Notes: generated by a model from the letters alone, not told the origin. Positions 1,567 to 9,403 are shown, counted from the stretch's first letter. The stretch: DNA of 9,403 nt from a virus (IMGVR_UViG_2531839146_000012), one strand, 5' to 3'. Program-made: numbers and translations.

Positions 1567-1584
1567 CAGTTAGAGAAGCTCTTG

Positions 1585-1641
1585 TAGAGGCATTATTGAG
1601 TTATTGGTTTTAATATTTTTGTGCCTCTATGGGCTTTTTTT
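1585..1641 (+). terminator. Putative terminator region after the secreted-protein gene
   Basis: TAGAGGCA (1585-1592) pairs with TGCCTCTA (1622-1629), followed by GGGC and a 7-T run (1635-1641). The loop is long, so the structure is non-canonical. Confidence 0.35.
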
Positions 1642-1798
1642 GCCTTTTTGCAAAGTAGGAGAGAGCACAGGAATCGTTAAAATTAATTATTGGGGTATTT
1701 AAGGTTATTTTCAGGTGGTTTAAGGGTATTAAACTTGATTTAATTGATTAAAATATAAACAGATAGTCCTGTATCTTATTGATTTATAAGGTTATTTT

Positions 1799-1855
1799 TA
1801 AATAAAGGTAAATAAAAAATAAATAGCCATAAATAGCTATAAATACATCTAAATA
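1799..1855. repeat. Six TAAATA motifs at 10-11 bp (helical) phasing
   Basis: TAAATA starts at 1799, 1809, 1820, 1830, 1840 and 1850. Confidence 0.6.
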
Positions 1856-2275
1856 CCTTTATCCCTTCCCTTATGGCTAGATTGCGAGAAGTGCTTAACG
1901 CGATTTTCAGCGCCCCCCGATCTGGAAAATCCAGAATCCCCAAATATCAGCAAGGAATTTTCTTGCGTAATCAACATCGTTTTTACCTATTAAATCATCA
2001 CACAGAAAGCCTTTCTGTAATGTCTCTCACTAAACTTTCACTAAACACGAGAATGATCGGTTTTATGTCGGATCAGATGCTAGAAACAGCACCACGTCTC
2101 ACAAGGGCTGTAAGCGATGAAACCAGTGTTTATGCGGGTGCAGGTCAAAATATGGGCCAAAATCCATTTAACATAATAATCGTAATATGCACTAAGGAAC
2201 ACATAGAACGCCTTGAATTGATGTATCAGGGGAAAAGTGATGGATTTTTTACGTAGGAGCACGAGAGGGCTTCTG

Positions 2276-2303
2276 TTGACTTTTGTGTGCTATGAAATAT
2301 AAT
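2276..2303 (+). promoter_or_regulatory. Putative sigma70 promoter firing into the repeat region
   Basis: -35 TTGACT (2276-2281), 16-bp spacer, -10 TATAAT (2298-2303). No ORF follows. Confidence 0.4.
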
Positions 2304-2337
2304 TAAAGGTTTTTTGTTTTTATCGTGTGATGTAGTG

Positions 2338-2780
2338 GATTACACAGGGGGATAGATTAAATGGTGTTCTGTTTATACAGGTTTATTTGTTAGATCAACA
2401 ATTTGGCATTTCTAAACAGATGTTTGAACGTTGCCAAATGTATTGACAACACAAGAAAAGGGCTTGCTATGCCACGCATTACACGGAATAAGGCTGTAAA
2501 AACAAAATAAATTTTAAAATTTGCACAAACGAGAAAACTCGTTCAGAAACAAGCAGAACAATTTTTAGCCAACAATTTCTGATGGTGCTCTGTAAACCGC
2601 ATTACACAAGGCTTTGCGAAAGTGATGTAAAAGTGAAGAAAGCTAACATTGCACTTTGAAGCCATTTTTCATTGGATTTTTTAGTAGGGAATTACACAGG
2701 GAATAGAGAGCATTATTCTATGATTTACACAGGGAATATAGGGGATTATGGCACACACATAGAAAGGCATTACACAGAGT
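2338..2780 (+). repeat. Dispersed direct repeats of G(C/G)ATTACAC(A/G)GG (iteron-like), six copies
   Basis: ATTACAC cores at 2339, 2478, 2601, 2691, 2769 and a TTTACAC variant at 2724, each preceded by G(G/C/A) and followed by (A/G)(G/A)G. Confidence 0.6.
2401..2439. promoter_or_regulatory. Nested imperfect palindrome ATTTGGCA...AAACA-GA-TGTTT...TGCCAAAT, operator-like
   Basis: Outer arms 2401-2408 and 2432-2439 are exact reverse complements; an inner palindrome AAACAGATGTTT lies between them. A TTGACA at 2443-2448 follows. Confidence 0.35.
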
Positions 2781-2808
2781 GAGTGCTATGTGATGATTGG
2801 TAGTAACG

Positions 2809-2843
2809 GTAGGTCACTGTGAGCTACCCCCACAGAATTCTGT
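2809..2843. repeat. Isolated copy of the 22-bp repeat core (GGTAGGTCACTGTGAGCTA) followed by CCCCC and a perfect 12-bp palindrome ACAGAATTCTGT
   Basis: 2809-2827 matches the tandem unit at 3028-3135; the palindrome at 2832-2843 is flanked by TACCCC on both sides. Confidence 0.5.
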
Positions 2844-2883
2844 TACCCCTATCAAGTCTGATACCCGATAAGTATAAATAACA

Positions 2884-2981
2884 CCTAGGAAATGATTTCC
2901 GATCTATTTAGGAAGTAACCTAGGAAGTGGTTTCCTACCTACTTAGGAAATGAGTTCCTACCTACCTAGGAAATGAGTTCC
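2884..2981. repeat. Four CCTAGG-GGAAAT-G-A(T/G)TTCC palindromic sites, the last three at 23-bp pitch
   Basis: GGAAATGATTTCC at 2888-2900 is a perfect odd-length palindrome; GGAAGTGGTTTCC at 2923-2935; GGAAATGAGTTCC at 2946-2958 and 2969-2981. Confidence 0.6.
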
Positions 2982-3006
2982 ACCAATACTATAATTAAAT
3001 AATATA

Positions 3007-3022
3007 AATAATATTCTTTATA
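3007..3022. repeat. Exact 16-bp direct repeat AATAATATTCTTTATA, left copy; right copy at 3184-3199
   Basis: Identical 16-mers at 3007-3022 and 3184-3199 bracket the 22-bp tandem array and its AT-rich flank; both continue with similar (C)TATAT sequence. Confidence 0.55.
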
Positions 3023-3027
3023 CTATA

Positions 3028-3135
3028 TAGCTCACTGTGAACTAGGGGGGGTAGTTCACTATGAGCTAGGGGGTAGGTCATAGTGAGCTAGGGGGTAGGT
3101 CATAGTGAGCTAGGGGGTAGGTCACTGTGAACTAC
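3028..3135. repeat. Five tandem 22-bp repeats (unit about TAGGTCATAGTGAGCTAGGGGG), each with a palindromic TCAC-N-GTGA core
   Basis: Units start near 3028, 3050, 3074, 3096 and 3118 with 22-bp period; the first unit is in inverted orientation (AGCTCACTGTGAACTAG). Followed by an AT-rich stretch with (TA)6 at about 3203-3214. Confidence 0.65.
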
Positions 3136-3324
3136 AATAAGACTATTAATAAAACTATATTAGATTATTAATTAGATCATAATAATAATATTCTTTATAT
3201 CTATATATATATATGATCTTTTGCCTTCCGGCGTTAGCTTCACTCTCTGGCAAGCAGCCTTACTCCGCTACCTTTCGGGCTTCGTGGCTGGCCCGTTCCG
3301 CTCACACCGAAAGCAAAGCGTTAC

Positions 3325-3366
3325 TTTCTTCGTGTAACTATCGTGGCGGTAACGCCCACGAAGAAA
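3325..3366 (+). other. Stable hairpin with GNRA-type tetraloop (GGCG-GTAA-CGCC) nested in a 9-bp outer stem
   Basis: TTTCTTCGTG (3325-3334) pairs with CACGAAGAAA (3357-3366); inner GGCGGTAACGCC at 3345-3356. Sits in a locally GC-richer segment (about 3216-3420). Confidence 0.35.
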
Positions 3367-3600
3367 TACTATTGCGCTGTGCGCAGTAAGAGTAATCACC
3401 TAACCAATCATACTGATTGCTTATGTGTTAACTCTCTCTACTCTTAATTACCCTCCTACATATAATAACTCTGTTATTCTCTGTAGTTGTGTAATTACTC
3501 GAAGAGAGAGCGGCTAAAGCTCAATTACACTCTGCTTTCCTCGTGTAATTTCACTAAGCCTCAATACAATTCCACTTCCTACTTCTGTAGTCGTGTAATT
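3330..3600 (-). repeat. Inverted copies of the ATTACAC motif (CGTGTAAT) plus a 20-bp direct repeat CT(C/T)CTGTAGT(T/C)GTGTAATT
   Basis: GTGTAAT at 3489-3495, 3543-3549 and 3593-3599; GTGTAAC variant at 3333-3339; one direct ATTACAC at 3524-3530. The 20-mers at 3479-3498 and 3582-3600 are near-identical. Confidence 0.5.
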
Positions 3601-3640
3601 GTTTTCGGTGGAAAAGCCAGAGGCGACACCGAAAGAGAAT

Positions 3641-3710
3641 TCTGATCTTATTAATCTTATCTATCTTAGTTAATCTTCTTACTTATCTTACTTTATCTAC
3701 TTTATTATTA
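3641..3710. repeat. Pyrimidine-rich cluster of TTATCT / ATCTT motifs (AGATAA on the minus strand)
   Basis: TTATCT at 3657-3662, 3683-3688 and 3693-3698, plus several ATCT variants. Confidence 0.4.
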
Positions 3711-4220
3711 ATAATAGCTTTATAAGCTCTCTGACGCAAGAAACAGCATTCAGGAAGGGAATCACCTTAGAAAAGGTGTTCTTTGCGTCATAATGTGTTT
3801 TATGAGGGATTCAGAGGTGTTTCATAACAGGAATGTATAGAGGATACTTTAGGTAATTAAAAATAAGGGGTCTAAATGCTTCTCTAACAGCATTAAGCAG
3901 GGTAGGGAATGGAAACGCATTGCCTACACATATAGGCTCACTACAGAGCTTTACAGAGCGTTTTATAAAGTGACTCTCTATCTTATATCTACCATCACCT
4001 TTTCATATACCTAACAAATACAAAATAAGCCCCTTAAATAAGCCTCTGGCGAGCTAAACAGCCATTAGATAAGGGAATGTATTGCTTTTATCAAAATCTC
4101 GTTAGAACGCGTTTTAGAGCGTTTTAGACAATAATGAAGAATAGCACTACACAGAAGAGCACGAATAGCTAAGAAAAAATGTAAGTACATGAAAAAGATC
4201 AGATTTTTTGTGAAAAGGTA

Positions 4221-4249
4221 TTGACAAATGTTTCTTTATATGTAATAAT
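4221..4249 (+). promoter_or_regulatory. Putative sigma70 promoter of the early operon
   Basis: -35 TTGACA (4221-4226), 17-bp spacer, extended -10 TGtAATAAT (4241-4249). It lies about 110 nt upstream of the first gene. Confidence 0.5.
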
Positions 4250-4359
4250 AGGTATTAGAGGGACAGAAAAACATTCTTCTCTAAATAATCAAAATCAATG
4301 CACTTTGAAGCCGTCAGGCTTGCAAGGTGTTTTTCTTTTAACTGAATAAGGAGTTTTTT

Positions 4360-4548
4360 ATGAAATGGTTTACCCCGGAGCACGTCATCTCGGCATTTAA
4401 AAAAGGTGAGCTTACACGCCATCAAGTAGTAATGAATCGTAATATGGCAAGGAGTCGAGGTTATCCAGAGCGAGCAGCTTGCTTCAATGAAGCACTCAAG
4501 ATTATTGATGAATTAAGAAAAAATGAAAAAGAATCTGAAACAGAGTAA
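4360..4548 (+). CDS. Small hypothetical protein (62 aa), first gene of the early operon
   Basis: AAGGAG RBS at 4348-4353, 6-nt spacer, ATG 4360. No family recognised. Confidence 0.6.
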   Translation: MKWFTPEHVISAFKKGELTRHQVVMNRNMARSRGYPERAACFNEALKIIDELRKNEKESETE

Positions 4549-4567
4549 AGAATAGAAGGAGAAAACT

Positions 4568-4735
4568 ATGAGCGAAACCAAGAAACCAATTCCGCGCACT
4601 TACCTACACGTTGACCCTGAAATCTTCAAGGTTTTATTTGCTGAAGCCAAGAAAAGGCAAATTATGGTCAGTGATTTGATGTTAGAAATCATTACTGAAG
4701 CAGCAGAGAACATCAAACAAAAAAAGGGTAAGTGA
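4568..4735 (+). CDS. Ribbon-helix-helix (CopG/Arc/MetJ-like) DNA-binding protein, 55 aa; below the ORF-track cutoff
   Basis: AAGGAG at 4555-4560, ATG 4568, stop TGA 4733-4735. Translation MSETKKPIPRTYLHVDPEIFKVLFAEAKKRQIMVSDLMLEIITEAAENIKQKKGK fits a beta-strand / helix / helix layout typical of RHH proteins. Confidence 0.55.
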   Translation: MSETKKPIPRTYLHVDPEIFKVLFAEAKKRQIMVSDLMLEIITEAAENIKQKKGK

Positions 4736-4786
4736 TCCTCATTCACTTTAGTAGCGCATTAAGCGTGATTTATAAGGAGATTTTTA

Positions 4787-5479
4787 ATGATTAATCAACT
4801 AACTTTTACAAAACACTATGACACGTTTGATAATGTATCAAAGATTTATTCTGATAAATTCCCTCAAGGAAAAGATTTAGATCTATTACATATTGTGCTT
4901 TATTTTCGATTCCTTAGTTATCAGGAAAACAACCTTAATTGTTATGAAAGTCACGAAACATTAGCTAAGATTTTTAAGTCTTCAGCGTCAACAATTAAAC
5001 GTAAGATAAACGATCTTAAAGAGATGGGATTATTAGAAACATCCCCACATCCTGATCCGTATATTTCATCTTTGATTTACAATGCTCTCCCTCTCACAGA
5101 TGCACATATTACTCCCCCAGGAGAATCATCACTCTCTGATCTTTCTGAGGCAGAAGAAGCACAGGAACAACCTAAAGGCCATAAACAGCCTTCTTTTGAT
5201 GTTCTTGATGATGATTGGGATGCGCCTTTACCGTGGGAGACGGAAGAAACACCTGTTTCATCAAGTGAAAAGGTAGCTAATGATAATGAGGAGGATGTGT
5301 TAGAGAATTTTGCCTCTCTTATCATCCGGGAGAAACACAGAAGAACAGGAGGATCATCATTTATAGACTTTGCAAATTCACTGGCTTATAGACACGGGCT
5401 AAAACGACCAAATGGTATTGAGGCATATTTTGCTAAGAAACATCCCAAAGTATATGAAGACTTTGATATTCCATTTTAA
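4787..5479 (+). CDS. Winged-HTH protein (HTH_36 / replisome-organizer-like N-domain), acidic linker, C-terminus ending EDFDIPF
   Basis: AAGGAG at 4774-4779, ATG 4787. The N-terminal ...CYESHETLAKIFKSSASTIKRKINDLKEMGLLE matches the usual winged-HTH pattern of phage/plasmid replication organizers. An acidic low-complexity linker (DDDWDAPLPWETEE...) follows; the last residues are YEDFDIPF, stop 5477-5479. Confidence 0.8.
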   Translation: MINQLTFTKHYDTFDNVSKIYSDKFPQGKDLDLLHIVLYFRFLSYQENNLNCYESHETLAKIFKSSASTIKRKINDLKEMGLLETSPHPDPYISSLIYNALPLTDAHITPPGESSLSDLSEAEEAQEQPKGHKQPSFDVLDDDWDAPLPWETEETPVSSSEKVANDNEEDVLENFASLIIREKHRRTGGSSFIDFANSLAYRHGLKRPNGIEAYFAKKHPKVYEDFDIPF

Positions 5480-6649: not shown

Positions 6650-6678
6650 AAAAAGCAACAAAAAAGTTGTAAAATATC

Positions 6679-6707
6679 TTGACATTTCATATATTGTATG
6701 TTAATAT
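6679..6707 (+). promoter_or_regulatory. Strong sigma70-like promoter ahead of the late genes
   Basis: -35 TTGACA (6679-6684), 17-bp spacer, -10 TAATAT (6702-6707). Confidence 0.6.
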
Positions 6708-6714
6708 AATTATA

Positions 6715-6932
6715 TAGGGTGATTATTTTTCCTTTATTGGTTCGATATTAAAAATTCTTCTTGTCGTTAAAGGGGAGTAAAATCTCCGCTCCCCGCTTCT
6801 CCTCCTTAAGTAATACTGTGTCATTATTACCTCTTTCCTTTGTTATGCATACATCTTGGAGTGTGCATAACATAGGGTAATTACATAGGTACAAGTTAAT
6901 AAAAGGCGGCTTTAAATGCTGCCTTTTATTTT
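6715..6932 (+). ncRNA. Candidate roughly 220-nt leader / small RNA from the promoter to the intrinsic terminator; no ORF
   Basis: Promoter at 6679-6707 and terminator at 6901-6932 with no ORF over 11 codons between them. Alternative hairpins GGGGAG...CTCC...CTCCCC (6772-6794) and a 9-bp stem TGTTATGCA / TGCATAACA (6841-6849 / 6865-6873). Confidence 0.35.
6901..6932 (+). terminator. Rho-independent terminator
   Basis: Stem AAGGCGGC (6903-6910) / GCTGCCTT (6918-6925, one G-U pair), loop TTTAAAT, then TTATTTT. Confidence 0.6.
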
Positions 6933-6994
6933 GCCCGTTATGCAACTTAAAAGTTGTATTTCTTACTTTAAACAAGGTAACAAGGTTTATATAA

Positions 6995-7584: not shown

Positions 7585-8613
7585 ATGATTCTAGGTAATG
7601 ATTACGTTGATTTAGCTCCTCTGTTCTCTGCGCATAGCACTAGAAATTATCTGCTTTCTACTCTTGATTTTACGGATTCTGTAGGGGTTACATCTCATAA
7701 AGTGGCTGTTAGCCAACTGGTGGAAACTAACGAATCTCTGTTCAACAAAGAAACCTCTCGTTTCTCTTCTGAACATAACGTGACTAAGCGTGAACAAGGT
7801 AAAGAATATCTGATTGAAATCCCGTACTTTTTAAGGGAAGACCTGATCAAACCGCAGGACGTGCAAGGCAAACGTAAACCTGGCACTGATTTTCAGGAAA
7901 CACTCACTGATATTTATGCTGACTATGTTGCTAAACACAATGTTGCATTCCAGCGTACAAAAGAGAGCGTGTTGGCGGCTTCTTTGTTCTCTGGCAAAAC
8001 TTACACGCCTAAAACTGATGATGTTCTTATCGAATGGGGCAAGCTGTTTAACGTATCAGCTATGAAAGCCACTGTGAACGCTTCCAGCACTGACACCACG
8101 AAGATTTTTAAAGAATTTGATCAGATTGCTACTGACATTATCGAGAAAGCACAAAGCCAGGCGGCTGCTGTAGAGCGTATTGTTGTTTTCTGTAAGCCGG
8201 AAGCCTTCTCTGCAATTCGATTCTCTGCTGGTATGGCAAACGCATTCCAGTATGTAAGCCCACTGGAAGAGGGGAACGTTGTGTATCAGCGTCGTGACCT
8301 GCTGCCAGGGGTGACAGCGTTCACTATTCCAGGAACTAACATTGATGTTATTAAACTGGTAGATCCGCTACACCTGGCACATATGACCGCAGACGCTGTA
8401 GCGATTCCGAAGTTTGCTAAAGGCTCTAACGTATATCAGAACATCTACGGGGCTGCTTCCAGCACTTTTGAACTGATTAATGCCGATCCTACTGAGGTCT
8501 ATAGCTACAGCTATGAATCTTCTCGTGGTGATGCTGTGAACGTTGTTACAGAGAATAGCCAGATGGTTGTTAACCACGGTGTAGGCTTCTCCGTTCAAAT
8601 CACTGTTAAATAA
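7585..8613 (+). CDS. Putative phage major capsid protein, T7 gp10-like (342 aa)
   Basis: AAAAGGA RBS, ATG 7585. By eye, the segment AVERIVVFCKPEAFSAIRFSAGMANAFQYVSPLEEGNV aligns with T7 gp10 ...ADRVFYCDPDSYSAILAALMPNAANYAALIDPEKGSI (shared R, C-x-P, SAI, M-x-NA-x-x-Y, P-x-E-x-G) at a similar position in a protein of near-identical length (342 vs 345 aa; T7 sequence from memory). Followed by a strong terminator. Confidence 0.6.
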   Translation: MILGNDYVDLAPLFSAHSTRNYLLSTLDFTDSVGVTSHKVAVSQLVETNESLFNKETSRFSSEHNVTKREQGKEYLIEIPYFLREDLIKPQDVQGKRKPGTDFQETLTDIYADYVAKHNVAFQRTKESVLAASLFSGKTYTPKTDDVLIEWGKLFNVSAMKATVNASSTDTTKIFKEFDQIATDIIEKAQSQAAAVERIVVFCKPEAFSAIRFSAGMANAFQYVSPLEEGNVVYQRRDLLPGVTAFTIPGTNIDVIKLVDPLHLAHMTADAVAIPKFAKGSNVYQNIYGAASSTFELINADPTEVYSYSYESSRGDAVNVVTENSQMVVNHGVGFSVQITVK

Positions 8614-8630
8614 TATTTAACGTGTAATAG

Positions 8631-8664
8631 AGGCGTGGCGTGTATTCACGCTTCGCCTTTTTTT
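8631..8664 (+). terminator. Rho-independent terminator after the capsid-like gene
   Basis: AGGCG-TG-GCGTG / loop TATT / CACGC-TT-CGCCT, followed by a 7-T run (8658-8664). Confidence 0.7.
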
Positions 8665-8698
8665 ATTTATTTTTTAAATTTTGAGAGGTGATTAAAAT

Positions 8699-8916: not shown

Positions 8917-9183
8917 ATGTTAGAAATTAACACTTCTAAAATTAAGAACACAGTTACATTTAGTGTAGATAAAGACAGCTTGAAAAAAGCGAAAGACTCT
9001 ATTACAGGCTTAAAGGAATTCGCAGAAAACATCAAGCCAGCTAAATTAAGGTTTGATAATGTCACTAAAGGCTATAAGAAAGCACAAAGTGAAGTAGATA
9101 AGATTACTAAAAAGCAAGCCCAGGCTGATAAAGCTAATGCTAAAGCACAATTAGCCGCTCAACGTGTAGTTGCAAGAGGGTAA
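8917..9183 (+). pseudogene. Lys/Ala/Gln-rich (coiled-coil-like) protein gene truncated by the IS1 insertion
   Basis: AAGGGGA RBS, ATG 8917. The frame runs into the IS1 terminal inverted repeat starting at 9179, and the stop TAA (9181-9183) is supplied by the IS1 end GGTAATGAC. Translation ends ...AQLAAQRVVARG. Confidence 0.5.
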
Positions 9184-9403
9184 TGACTCCAACTTATTGA
9201 TAGTGTTTTATGTTCAGATAATGCCCGATGACTTTGTCATGCAGCTCCACCGATTTTGAGAACGACAGCGACTTCCGTCCCAGCCGTGCCAGGTGCTGCC
9301 TCAGATTCAGGTTATGCCGCTCAATTCGCTGCGTATATCGCTTGCTGATTACGTGCAGCTTTCCCTTCAGGCGGGATTCATACAGCGGCCAGCCATCCGT
9401 CAT
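9179..9403 (-). mobile_element. IS1 right end (partial; continues beyond the window)
   Basis: 9179 onward reads GGTAATGACTCCAACTTATTGATAGTGTTTTATGTTCAG..., the reverse complement of the canonical IS1 right terminus including the GGTAATGACTCCAACTTATTGAT inverted repeat. Confidence 0.9.
9194..9403 (-). CDS. insB: IS1 transposase InsB, C-terminal fragment
   Basis: Track [72 protein letters not shown] is the recognisable C-terminus of IS1 InsB; stop at 9196-9194. Confidence 0.9.

Follow-up and report, generated by a model that had tools for sequence, protein, structure and literature searches.

A proposed intergenic hub in a satellite-like island of Escherichia coli, with initiator-matched iteron arrays and a copied boundary of a phage terminal repeat

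We analysed a 9,403-nucleotide stretch of DNA catalogued as viral (IMGVR_UViG_2531839146_000012; the window, here meaning the whole stretch) and, within it, positions 1567-4359, which hold no supported gene and are densely packed with repeats. The element is a chromosomal satellite-like island of Escherichia coli, truncated in this copy by the insertion sequences (IS) IS100 and IS1; it is neither a plasmid nor a phage genome, the settings in which a preliminary description of the sequence had placed it. Judging from sequence, we think it reasonably probable that 1567-4359 is the cis-acting hub of an island that exploits virulent Stephanstirmvirinae phages, and that it joins a replication origin, a site for the helper's terminase and a regulatory region. 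The helpers are presumably the phi92/Justusliebigvirus and phAPEC8/Phapecoctavirus groups, which we take to be virulent myoviruses of 145-150 kb. What appears to be new is the anatomy of this hub, namely a copy of a phage terminal-repeat boundary that varies with the helper and iteron cassettes that vary with the initiator.

A sensitive search of the stretch against 50,697 phage records (2.3 Gb) returned one phage match only, a 46-bp site at 1876-1921 (E = 6e-9). All 54 matching genomes are phi92-like, with 90-95% identity, and a few of them are deposited under Campylobacter, Salmonella or Serratia names. Among the matches listed, every record that opens with the genome end has the site at 318-363. 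For phi92, the annotated direct terminal repeat (DTR) spans 1-343, with identical copies at both ends, and its inner boundary at 343/344 (…CGCGTTA|AGCAC…) thus falls in the middle of the match. In the window, the copy of this inner boundary occupies 1876-1949 on the plus strand. Over its core (1876-1921), the identity with phi92 363-318 is 93.5%, the counterpart of the genome end lies between 1895 and 1896 (GTGCT|TAACGCG), and a conserved CAAATATCA follows at 1941-1949. We propose that 1876-1949 serves as a recognition and cleavage site for the helper terminase. The preliminary description had suggested a packaging site as well; it was correct as to the kind of element, since 46-74 bp are a copy of a helper terminal-repeat boundary, and mistaken as to the basis, which is not the repeats it had named.

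Comparison with related islands shows that the boundary copy is constant in place and variable in type. A version was present in every sampled island (about 30), on the same strand and at the same position. The phi92-type version is absent from the relative L008, from an O104:H4 strain, where a diverged version at the same place matches 65 Phapecoctavirus-type genomes. This site is 82% identical over 78 nt to positions 273-350 of phage WPEC4 and spans the boundary at 328/329; the deposited WPEC4 sequence has an exact 328-bp terminal duplication, and its boundary also reads …CGCGTTA|AGCAC…. Altogether, the island sites comprise a phi92-type, a phAPEC8-type, a third type (L013) and a phi92/phAPEC8 hybrid (L021). 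The phage lineages likewise differ at the boundary site, as seen in phi92, WPEC4 and Citrobacter phage Tr1. In an alignment of these three lineages with four island variants, AACGC is kept where the cut falls, as is CAAATATC some 45 nt inside the repeat.

A second segment of the window, at 2391-2446 on the plus strand, is collinear with the first and matches phi92 DTR positions ~129-185; the match scored 22, where the null from shuffling was 12.2 +/- 1.7 (0/300 shuffles). Its phage counterpart is the part of the DTR that is best conserved between phi92 and WPEC4 and is promoter-like (TTGACA...TTGCCAAGCC), and the segment is nearly invariant in the islands that have the corresponding module. 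No second cut site was found in the window. In most relatives, the two DTR-derived segments are separated by a gene for a serine recombinase of the invertase/resolvase type (179-183 aa, minus strand), which is located downstream of the promoter-like element; examples are L006 9347-9886, L008 8246-8797 and those of L012-L017. The window has an unrelated 383-bp segment (1950-2332) at this place, in which tblastn detected no remnant of the recombinase.

Traces of a further boundary copy lie to the left of the stretch. Positions 880-900 (ggcgcaaacgtgatcatcgct) correspond to the 'unique-side' half of a phAPEC8-type copy. In the regions compared (823-902 and 1884-1896), this half-copy parts from L015 and L008 no more than 1 nt away from the terminase-cut equivalent (gct|taacg). 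The segment 901-1895, which holds a 183-aa open reading frame (ORF), a terminator, a TAAATA array and the phi92-type unique side, looks inserted exactly at the cut position. Recombination seems to occur at the position where the terminase would cut.

The proposed origin lies further to the right. Four 23/35-bp repeats with a TAGGAAATGA(T/G)TTCC palindrome (the TAGGAAATGATTTCC palindromes; 2883-2981, plus strand) are followed by a 44-bp A+T-rich stretch (2982-3025; GC 0.11) and then by 4.8 tandem copies, counted as five, of the 22-bp imperfect palindrome GGGGGTAGGTCA(yr)GTGAGCTA (3026-3135, plus strand), which are spaced two helical turns apart. These run into a second A+T-rich stretch of 79 bp (3136-3214; GC 0.10) that includes a (TA)n tract at 3196-3214 and is our candidate for the DNA-unwinding element. 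Both A+T stretches hold AATAATATTCTTTATA, with which the first of them ends. One more 22-bp repeat stands alone at 2808-2831 on the minus strand, inverted relative to the main array; such a lone copy is also present in islands with a different (type-2) initiator.

The initiator-like protein (230 aa; 4787-5479, plus strand) is encoded 1.7 kb downstream of the repeat arrays. It consists of an N-terminal winged helix, which we call type 1, a conserved ALPLTDAHITPP motif and a C-terminal EDFDIPF, and its profile matches include phrog_270 (1.9e-9), several other phage replication-initiator families and HTH_36. Among relatives, the N-terminal domain is of three unrelated types with about 25% mutual identity, and the middle motif and the C-terminus are common to all. 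The repeats covary with these types. Type-1 islands carry 2-6 copies of the 22-bp repeat (array in 12/12 islands), type-2 islands 2-5 copies of a 23-bp TAGGAAATGAGTTCC palindrome (7/7) and type-3 islands 4-5 copies of GTAACGAnnnGTTACA (2/2), and the array of each type directly adjoins a stretch of about 90% A+T. The exchange is clearest in L023, in which the window flanks 1401-2826 and 3137-4472 are kept at 90-95% identity, type-3 repeats replace 2826-3137 and the DNA-binding domain of the initiator is type 3; the exchange is confined to the iteron segment and this domain.

Because the arrays adjoin A+T stretches and swap together with the DNA-binding domain of the initiator, we read the repeats as iterons, and the origin that the preliminary description had suspected gains support from the same two observations. 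The window and two other type-1 islands hold both a type-2 and a type-1 array, each with an A+T-rich stretch of its own behind it; in the window these arrays lie at 2883-2981 and 3026-3135. As the window encodes a type-1 initiator, the type-1 array is the cognate one and the type-2 array is an orphan. The GGAAAT-G-ATTTCC palindromes and the five 22-bp repeats would thus represent two tandem origin cassettes of different specificity. The centromere that had also been suggested is not supported: partition genes are lacking, and the palindromes behave as the iterons of a second initiator type. A related plasmid origin, for which a database check had been recommended, was not found in PLSDB.

The initiator has no helicase or primase domain and must therefore recruit the replisome of the host or the helper. 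PADLOC defence models gave weak helix-turn-helix matches only for this protein, and NCBIfam gave nothing that names a function. We also observed that initiators of each type have D(F)D(I/L)PF at their C-terminus (EDFDIPF at 5459-5479 in the window; DSLPF in type 2), as do the proteins of L001-L017. The C-terminal tip of the E. coli single-stranded DNA-binding protein (SSB), DFDDDIPF, docks many replication proteins. By analogy, the SSB-tip-like end of the initiator could be the means by which a replisome is recruited.

The same DNA-binding domains occur in phage nucleases. A 55-aa ribbon-helix-helix (RHH)-like ORF (4568-4735, plus strand), outside 1567-4359 and part of the same module, precedes the initiator gene. 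Window positions 4556-4794, which comprise this gene and the start of the initiator gene, are identical in DNA sequence (100%) to Justusliebigvirus phage Muut, and a two-part alignment of 4556-5125 to phage Inny has 96.8% identity. The gene that follows the RHH-like gene in these phages encodes a nuclease chimera. Inny gp184 (L010 3233-4336) consists of a type-3 domain, a type-2 domain and a T5orf172/MUG113 endonuclease of the GIY-YIG superfamily (phrog_681, 3.9e-18), and Muut gp154 (L046 2732-3730) of another winged-helix domain, a type-2 domain and the same nuclease. The type-2 and type-3 domains of the relatives are about 92-93% identical (tblastn) to those in the two chimeras. According to Barth et al. 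2023 (PMC10448857), no homology to satellite repA genes is detectable in the second chimera domain; in both chimeras we find it to be type 2 and about 92% identical (tblastn) to the initiators of L008 and L013. The type-1 domain of the window has no close relative in any phage record, its sole match being Inny at 32-34% identity. We infer that the type-2 array at 2883-2981 is of the type targeted by the Inny and Muut chimeras. The ICP1 nuclease Odn has the same architecture, an initiator DNA-binding domain joined to a nuclease, and binds and cuts the origin iterons of PLE (the element of Vibrio cholerae that resembles phage-inducible chromosomal islands), which evades the nuclease by rebuilding the iterons or by taking up another replicon module in exchange (PMC8263062).

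Part of this picture is already known, in the form of predictions. Barth, Dunham and Seed (2023; PMC10448857) noticed the chimeras in Inny, Muut and Mt1B1_P17 and predicted 224 putative E. coli satellites from them, and our relative L008 (CP027394) is an entry in their Supplementary Table S6. The element family and the arms race at the protein level are thus established as predictions. Neither the text nor the supplements of that paper refer to the non-coding stretch, to iterons or an origin sequence, or to terminal repeats and packaging sites in these elements. A literature search found no follow-up to it, and searches aimed at satellites of phi92-type phages gave nothing.

The third component of the hub is regulatory. 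A strong sigma-70-like promoter with an extended -10 TG (TTGACA-17-AATAAT; 4221-4249, plus strand) serves the operon of a 62-aa protein, the 55-aa RHH-like protein and the initiator, and its -35 element is kept in the divergent relative L008. Between this promoter and the first ORF lies a 13-bp leader hairpin followed by a U tract (4300-4345, plus strand). The hairpin is kept in four divergent subfamilies with different loops, and in one subfamily a paired deletion preserves the stem; we propose from this pattern that it acts as a terminator or attenuator gating the initiator operon. AGAGCGTTTTA-type motifs upstream of the promoter, at 3937-3965 and 4098-4128 (together 3937-4128, plus strand), are candidate operator sites. 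A second sigma-70-like promoter (TTGACT-16-TATAAT; 2276-2303, plus strand; 11/12 matches) reads towards the origin and lies within the 1950-2332 segment that stands in place of the serine recombinase gene of many relatives. The regulatory hub envisaged in the preliminary description is thus borne out in part, by the promoter of the initiator operon and the conserved leader terminator. The 5' half of the leader stem (CA(T/A)TGCACTTTGAAGCC; 4296-4312) recurs 1.65 kb upstream at 2647-2663, inside an array of ATTACAC motifs; this copy is not conserved in L008 and may be chance or a leftover.

That 1567-4359 holds no supported gene, as the preliminary description had stated, agrees with Pfam, codon-position, indel and annotation evidence. 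None of its 10 ORFs of at least 40 aa matched Pfam at E<=1. We judge the 127-codon open frame (1873-2256, plus strand) not to be a gene: the DTR-boundary copy makes up its first 25 codons, a frameshift or stop interrupts it in 3 of 10 distinct relatives, and its variable sites are spread over the codon positions as 9/6/8, so that no codon-position bias is apparent. Modules common to distant relatives at 75-80% identity have no 3-base periodicity, and 24 of their 26 indels have lengths that 3 does not divide; in the 62-aa ORF next to the stretch, which served as a control, the periodicity is seen. Nothing is annotated under the stretch by RefSeq/PGAP in nearly all of the ~755 matching genomes, and every intact relative has a long gene-free stretch of 1.5-3.0 kb at the same position. 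A tRNA scan of the window found none in the region. No covariance model of Rfam 15 matched 1567-4359 at E<=1, nor did any match the region in five relatives when gathering thresholds were applied. A degraded known gene, which had been named as a possible origin of the stretch, is likewise not indicated: there is no family match, no recombinase remnant and no codon periodicity.

All of the repeat families that had been listed from the sequence are present where they had been placed, and motif enrichments far above chance speak against simple low-complexity DNA. Six TAAATA motifs (starts 1799, 1809, 1820, 1830, 1840 and 1850; 1799-1855, plus strand; GC 0.17) are phased at 10-11 bp on the 'unique' side of the boundary copy and are probably bent DNA or a protein-binding array. 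TAAATA is not enriched across the whole window (13 found, 9.2 expected), and only this local phased cluster is special. ATTACAC occurs 11 times against 1.36 expected, a count reached in 0/200 shuffles. Its two groups bracket the origin: six ATTACAC(A/G)GG motifs, five exact and one TTTACAC variant, all point rightwards to the origin at 2339-2779 (plus strand), and four copies at 3489-3599, three on the minus strand and one on the plus strand, mostly point leftwards. The motif was not enriched in the phage segments examined. Beyond the second A+T stretch come a GC-richer block of short hairpins (3215-3400; GC 0.53), generic to several initiator types, then a series of four hairpins (3432-3636) built partly on inverted ATTACAC/GTGTAAT motifs that mostly point back to the origin, and TTATCT/TCTTA short-period repeats (3645-3708, plus strand; GC 0.19). 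The hairpin series at 3410-3660 has folding z-scores of -4.8 and -5.4 on the two strands. A covariation test of the hairpin blocks (14-16 distinct sequences, 23-65 variable columns) found at most one compensatory pair, in relatives that vary little.

Comparison with 30-odd relatives shows that the stretch is a mosaic of four modules swapped independently between islands. The phased TAAATA array and the site derived from phage lie in module A (~1567-2346). Module B (2333/2504-2999) unites the palindrome array with the ATTACACAGGG motifs and the single inverted iteron, module C (3000-3945) contains the 22-bp repeats, A+T-rich DNA, hairpin blocks and TTATCT repeats, and the promoter region is in module D (3946-4348). 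L008 has modules 2504-2999 and 3946-4348, as well as gene order, in common with the window.

The island family is widespread in E. coli. Relatives of the window island are found in 755 of 5426 complete genomes (about 1 in 7), O104:H4, O26 and O111 strains among them, and 1032 of the 1033 matching places are chromosomal. A capsid query against GTDB representatives, as a search for relatives in other species, gave one Escherichia sp. contig only. Intact relatives are integrative islands of about 12-14 kb that extend from a tRNA to a tyrosine integrase gene, mostly beside tRNA-Thr (thrW, next to proA) and otherwise beside tRNA-Gly or near thiM. At their start are some small ORFs, in many cases a small gene for a serine recombinase read from the other strand, and the gene-free 1.5-3.0 kb. 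The operon of the 62-aa, 55-aa RHH-like and 220-240 aa winged-helix proteins follows, with further small ORFs, and the end is formed by a capsid protein E homologue, a 609-aa tape-measure-like protein, a baseplate-hub-like protein and the integrase. The full set of capsid, tape-measure, baseplate-hub and integrase genes is present at tRNA-Thr in L001, L005, L006 and L008. The baseplate-hub homologue is 59-62% identical to a Justusliebigvirus protein and the tape-measure homologue about 35%; these two genes are neighbours in the phages as well, and the island capsid protein is only a distant relative of any phage capsid. Up to 4-5 places match the island or its hub in some E. coli genomes, at different tRNA sites. 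Such co-residence would explain frequent cassette exchange and perhaps also the orphan iteron arrays.

In the window, positions 1-215 are the end of IS100 (istB) and 9178-9403 are IS1, and the intervening 8962 bases match the E. coli MS 85-1 chromosome with 100% identity. The capsid gene is retained, and the tape-measure gene is cut by IS1 after 88 codons; this copy is an IS-truncated remnant and, as a whole, probably no longer mobile. Three further features lie outside the hub. The 183-aa ORF at 1015-1566, with a signal-peptide-like N-terminus, a Cys-rich start and two PHROG matches of unknown function (1.4e-17), is present in some islands only and looks like accessory cargo beside the hub. 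A second, smaller gene-free stretch at 6650-6994 precedes the capsid block and is probably a late-operon control region; it has a strong promoter-like TTGACA-17-TAATAT with TG at 6679-6707 and, by eye, a palindrome at ~6843-6880 and a terminator-like hairpin at ~6901-6932. A weak Rfam L20_leader match at 8545-8670 (24 bits, threshold 58.7) corresponds to the intrinsic terminator after the capsid gene (8630-8654 plus T-run).

Taken together, these features suggest how the hub may work. Infection by a matching Stephanstirmvirinae phage would induce the island and the expression of the initiator operon, gated by the host-type promoter and leader terminator in the regulatory region (3937-4345). 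At the origin (~2808-3214), the winged-helix initiator would bind its cognate 22-bp iterons, melt the adjoining DNA of about 90% A+T and recruit the replisome of host or helper, for which the DFDIPF end that resembles the SSB tip may serve. A cassette of the other type, left over from, or kept after, exchange between islands, would be represented by the second array (2883-2981) and its A+T stretch. Such exchange could be driven by phage nucleases that bear stolen initiator DNA-binding domains, giving rise to tandem and orphan arrays. The packaging site would comprise 1876-1949 and 2391-2446, that is, the inner boundary and an internal element copied from the 330-340 bp DTR of the helper, and the helper terminase would recognise the replicated island DNA and cut it at the equivalent position, 1895/1896. 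In T7, the right genome end is packaged first. If the helper phages behave likewise, the cut at the copied boundary would initiate packaging, which would proceed towards the origin side, rightwards in window coordinates. The island DNA may then enter particles made with the capsid, tape-measure and baseplate-hub homologues that the island itself encodes.

Several points weigh against this reading. Only a single DTR boundary has been copied, and the formation of a complete DTR-type substrate is therefore unexplained; the match to the left genome end of the phage scored 14 against a null of 15.0 +/- 2.0, with 0 matches to the end motif. Encapsidated island DNA is not evidenced in public contigs. 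The IMG/VR matches have isolate-genome-style contig identifiers and, to judge from these names, are probably prophage predictions and not virome DNA. Among 25 metagenome contigs, none of the 14 complete ones checked has a terminal overlap or an end at the cut site. The initiator assignment rests on weak-to-moderate profile matches, and neither this protein nor the RHH-like protein has a sequence relative in the PDB. No perfect DnaA box (TTWTNCACA) occurs in 1567-4359, where we found one-mismatch sites only; such boxes are frequent in iteron-type origins, though not universal. About 1 kb, comprising the ATTACAC arrays, the hairpin blocks at 3215-3640 and the TTATCT block, has no assigned function. 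This copy is also damaged by IS100 and IS1, with most of the tape-measure gene gone and no baseplate-hub or integrase gene following in the window, and that islands of this family replicate, excise and are packaged is something we infer. As a separate observation, the metagenome contigs L053 (Ga0233370_1000059, 13,247 bp) and L060 (12,583 bp) start at or just before tRNA-Thr, stop shortly after the integrase and have no terminal overlap; their ends at the island att boundaries are most simply assembly breaks at a variable island.

The boundary copy could instead be a decoy or a sensor, which titrates or misdirects the helper terminase or another DTR-binding phage protein and so blocks maturation, or which acts as a phage-responsive induction switch, for instance for the adjacent serine recombinase. 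The presence of only one of the two DTR boundaries would be understandable on this view, as would the location of the recombinase gene in most relatives, between DTR-derived segments and downstream of a promoter-like DTR element, and the failure to find packaged island DNA in the IMG/VR matches and metagenome contigs. However, the capsid, tape-measure and baseplate-hub homologues fit particle formation better than pure interference, and the site is kept in variants without the recombinase, such as the window. We consider this explanation rather unlikely in place of packaging, and the two roles are compatible with each other. A further possibility is that non-coding RNAs are the main products and the repeats secondary, with the hairpin blocks at 3215-3660 and 3730-3960 giving a replication primer or control RNA or an immunity RNA similar to P4 CI. 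These blocks have folding z-scores of -2.7 to -5.4 on both strands and stems that are almost invariant in relatives, the promoter-like site at 2276-2303 reads into the region, and there is one clear RNA element, the leader terminator hairpin. Yet equal folding of both strands is what DNA palindromes would give, and several stems are made of the ATTACAC motif, which resembles a protein site. Moreover, no compensatory change was seen in the 50-74 predicted pairs per block, in relatives that vary too little for the test, and Rfam gave no match at permissive thresholds. As this explanation also leaves the covariation of iterons with initiators and the DTR match unaccounted for, we think it distinctly improbable.

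Even less can be said for a plasmid-like maintenance region, in which an autonomous origin would be joined by a partition centromere formed by the palindrome array and bound by the small RHH-like protein. The 55-aa RHH-like ORF does lie beside the initiator gene, and palindrome arrays of this kind resemble type II centromeres. Nevertheless, no island has a ParA/ParM-type gene, and the palindrome array tracks the type-2 initiator, is always followed by an A+T stretch and is absent from most type-1 islands, although these keep the RHH-like gene. With no related origin on any PLSDB plasmid and all but one of the 1033 matching places chromosomal, we regard this explanation as very improbable. Decayed coding DNA or functionless low-complexity filler could be suspected since two IS elements damage this copy, but the gene-free stretch stands at the same position in every intact relative, there is no protein-family match, recombinase remnant or codon periodicity, the motifs are enriched far above chance, and the phage match is precise and falls at a functional site. 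This explanation is hardly credible to us.

The hub that we propose resembles several known systems in parts. The satellites of Barth et al. 2023 (PMC10448857) belong to the same element family, with initiator, capsid, tape-measure and baseplate-hub homologues, a tyrosine integrase by a tRNA and the same modular initiator DNA-binding domains, mirrored in the phage T5orf172 chimeras; that paper covers proteins only, whereas the window copy is an IS-truncated remnant. The PLE of V. cholerae (PMC8263062) similarly has a semi-palindromic iteron origin in a non-coding region, a helicase-less initiator and exchanged replicon modules, and its helper phage carries a chimera of an initiator DNA-binding domain and a T5orf172 nuclease. 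The two differ in host, in helper and in type of integrase, none of which are related. The parallel that we draw is one of function and not of membership, and, unlike PLE, the window hub has a copy of a helper DTR boundary and two tandem origin cassettes of different specificity. Compared with the plasmid and phage origins of pSC101, R6K, P1 and lambda, the island shares tandem initiator-binding repeats at whole helical turns, an A+T-rich unwinding element and an initiator in cis; it differs in lacking a perfect DnaA box, in having iterons that are themselves palindromes, in having no relative in PLSDB and in being normally integrated.

In P4, with the cos site of P2, and in cos-type Staphylococcus aureus pathogenicity islands (SaPIs), the helper terminase can act on satellite DNA by virtue of a short cis site that derives from the helper. 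The island site is comparable in being identical to the helper at the cleavage position and in varying with the helper lineage. In contrast to those systems, the helper here uses direct terminal repeats and not cos or headful pac, the inner boundary and one internal element are copied with the left-end boundary absent, and cleavage is predicted from the match. Like capsid-forming phage-inducible chromosomal islands (cf-PICIs), these satellites encode their own major capsid protein. They differ in that the annotated intact copies have no terminase, protease, portal, adaptor or Pri-Rep genes and that the presumed helpers are virulent myoviruses of 145-150 kb; the absence of cf-PICI signature genes from these satellites was also noted by Barth et al. 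2023 (PMC10448857).

A more far-reaching interpretation joins these elements, and we offer it tentatively, as possible and not as expected. These islands would be the first satellites to hijack the DTR packaging of large virulent myoviruses through a single copied boundary. The boundary would set the helper range and be swapped at the cut position; we suggest such switching between phi92-type and phAPEC8-type helpers because the 901-1895 module is inserted within 1 nt of that position and because the site of L021 is a hybrid. The second iteron array might be kept deliberately, as a decoy for origin-directed nucleases or for use of the initiator of a co-resident island.

In summary, our analysis gives a cis-acting anatomy to an island family that is common in E. 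coli and has so far been predicted from protein content only. The map of iteron cassettes provides exact substrates for testing the predicted origin-directed nucleases of Inny and Muut. The boundary copy points to the likely helpers, phi92-like and phAPEC8-like phages that are considered for therapy, and, to the nucleotide, to the step that is hijacked, and it offers a handle on genome-end recognition by the terminases of this phage subfamily, which is poorly known. Should the islands prove to interfere with these phages, knowing which type of boundary copy a strain carries could help to predict the therapeutic phages that it resists.

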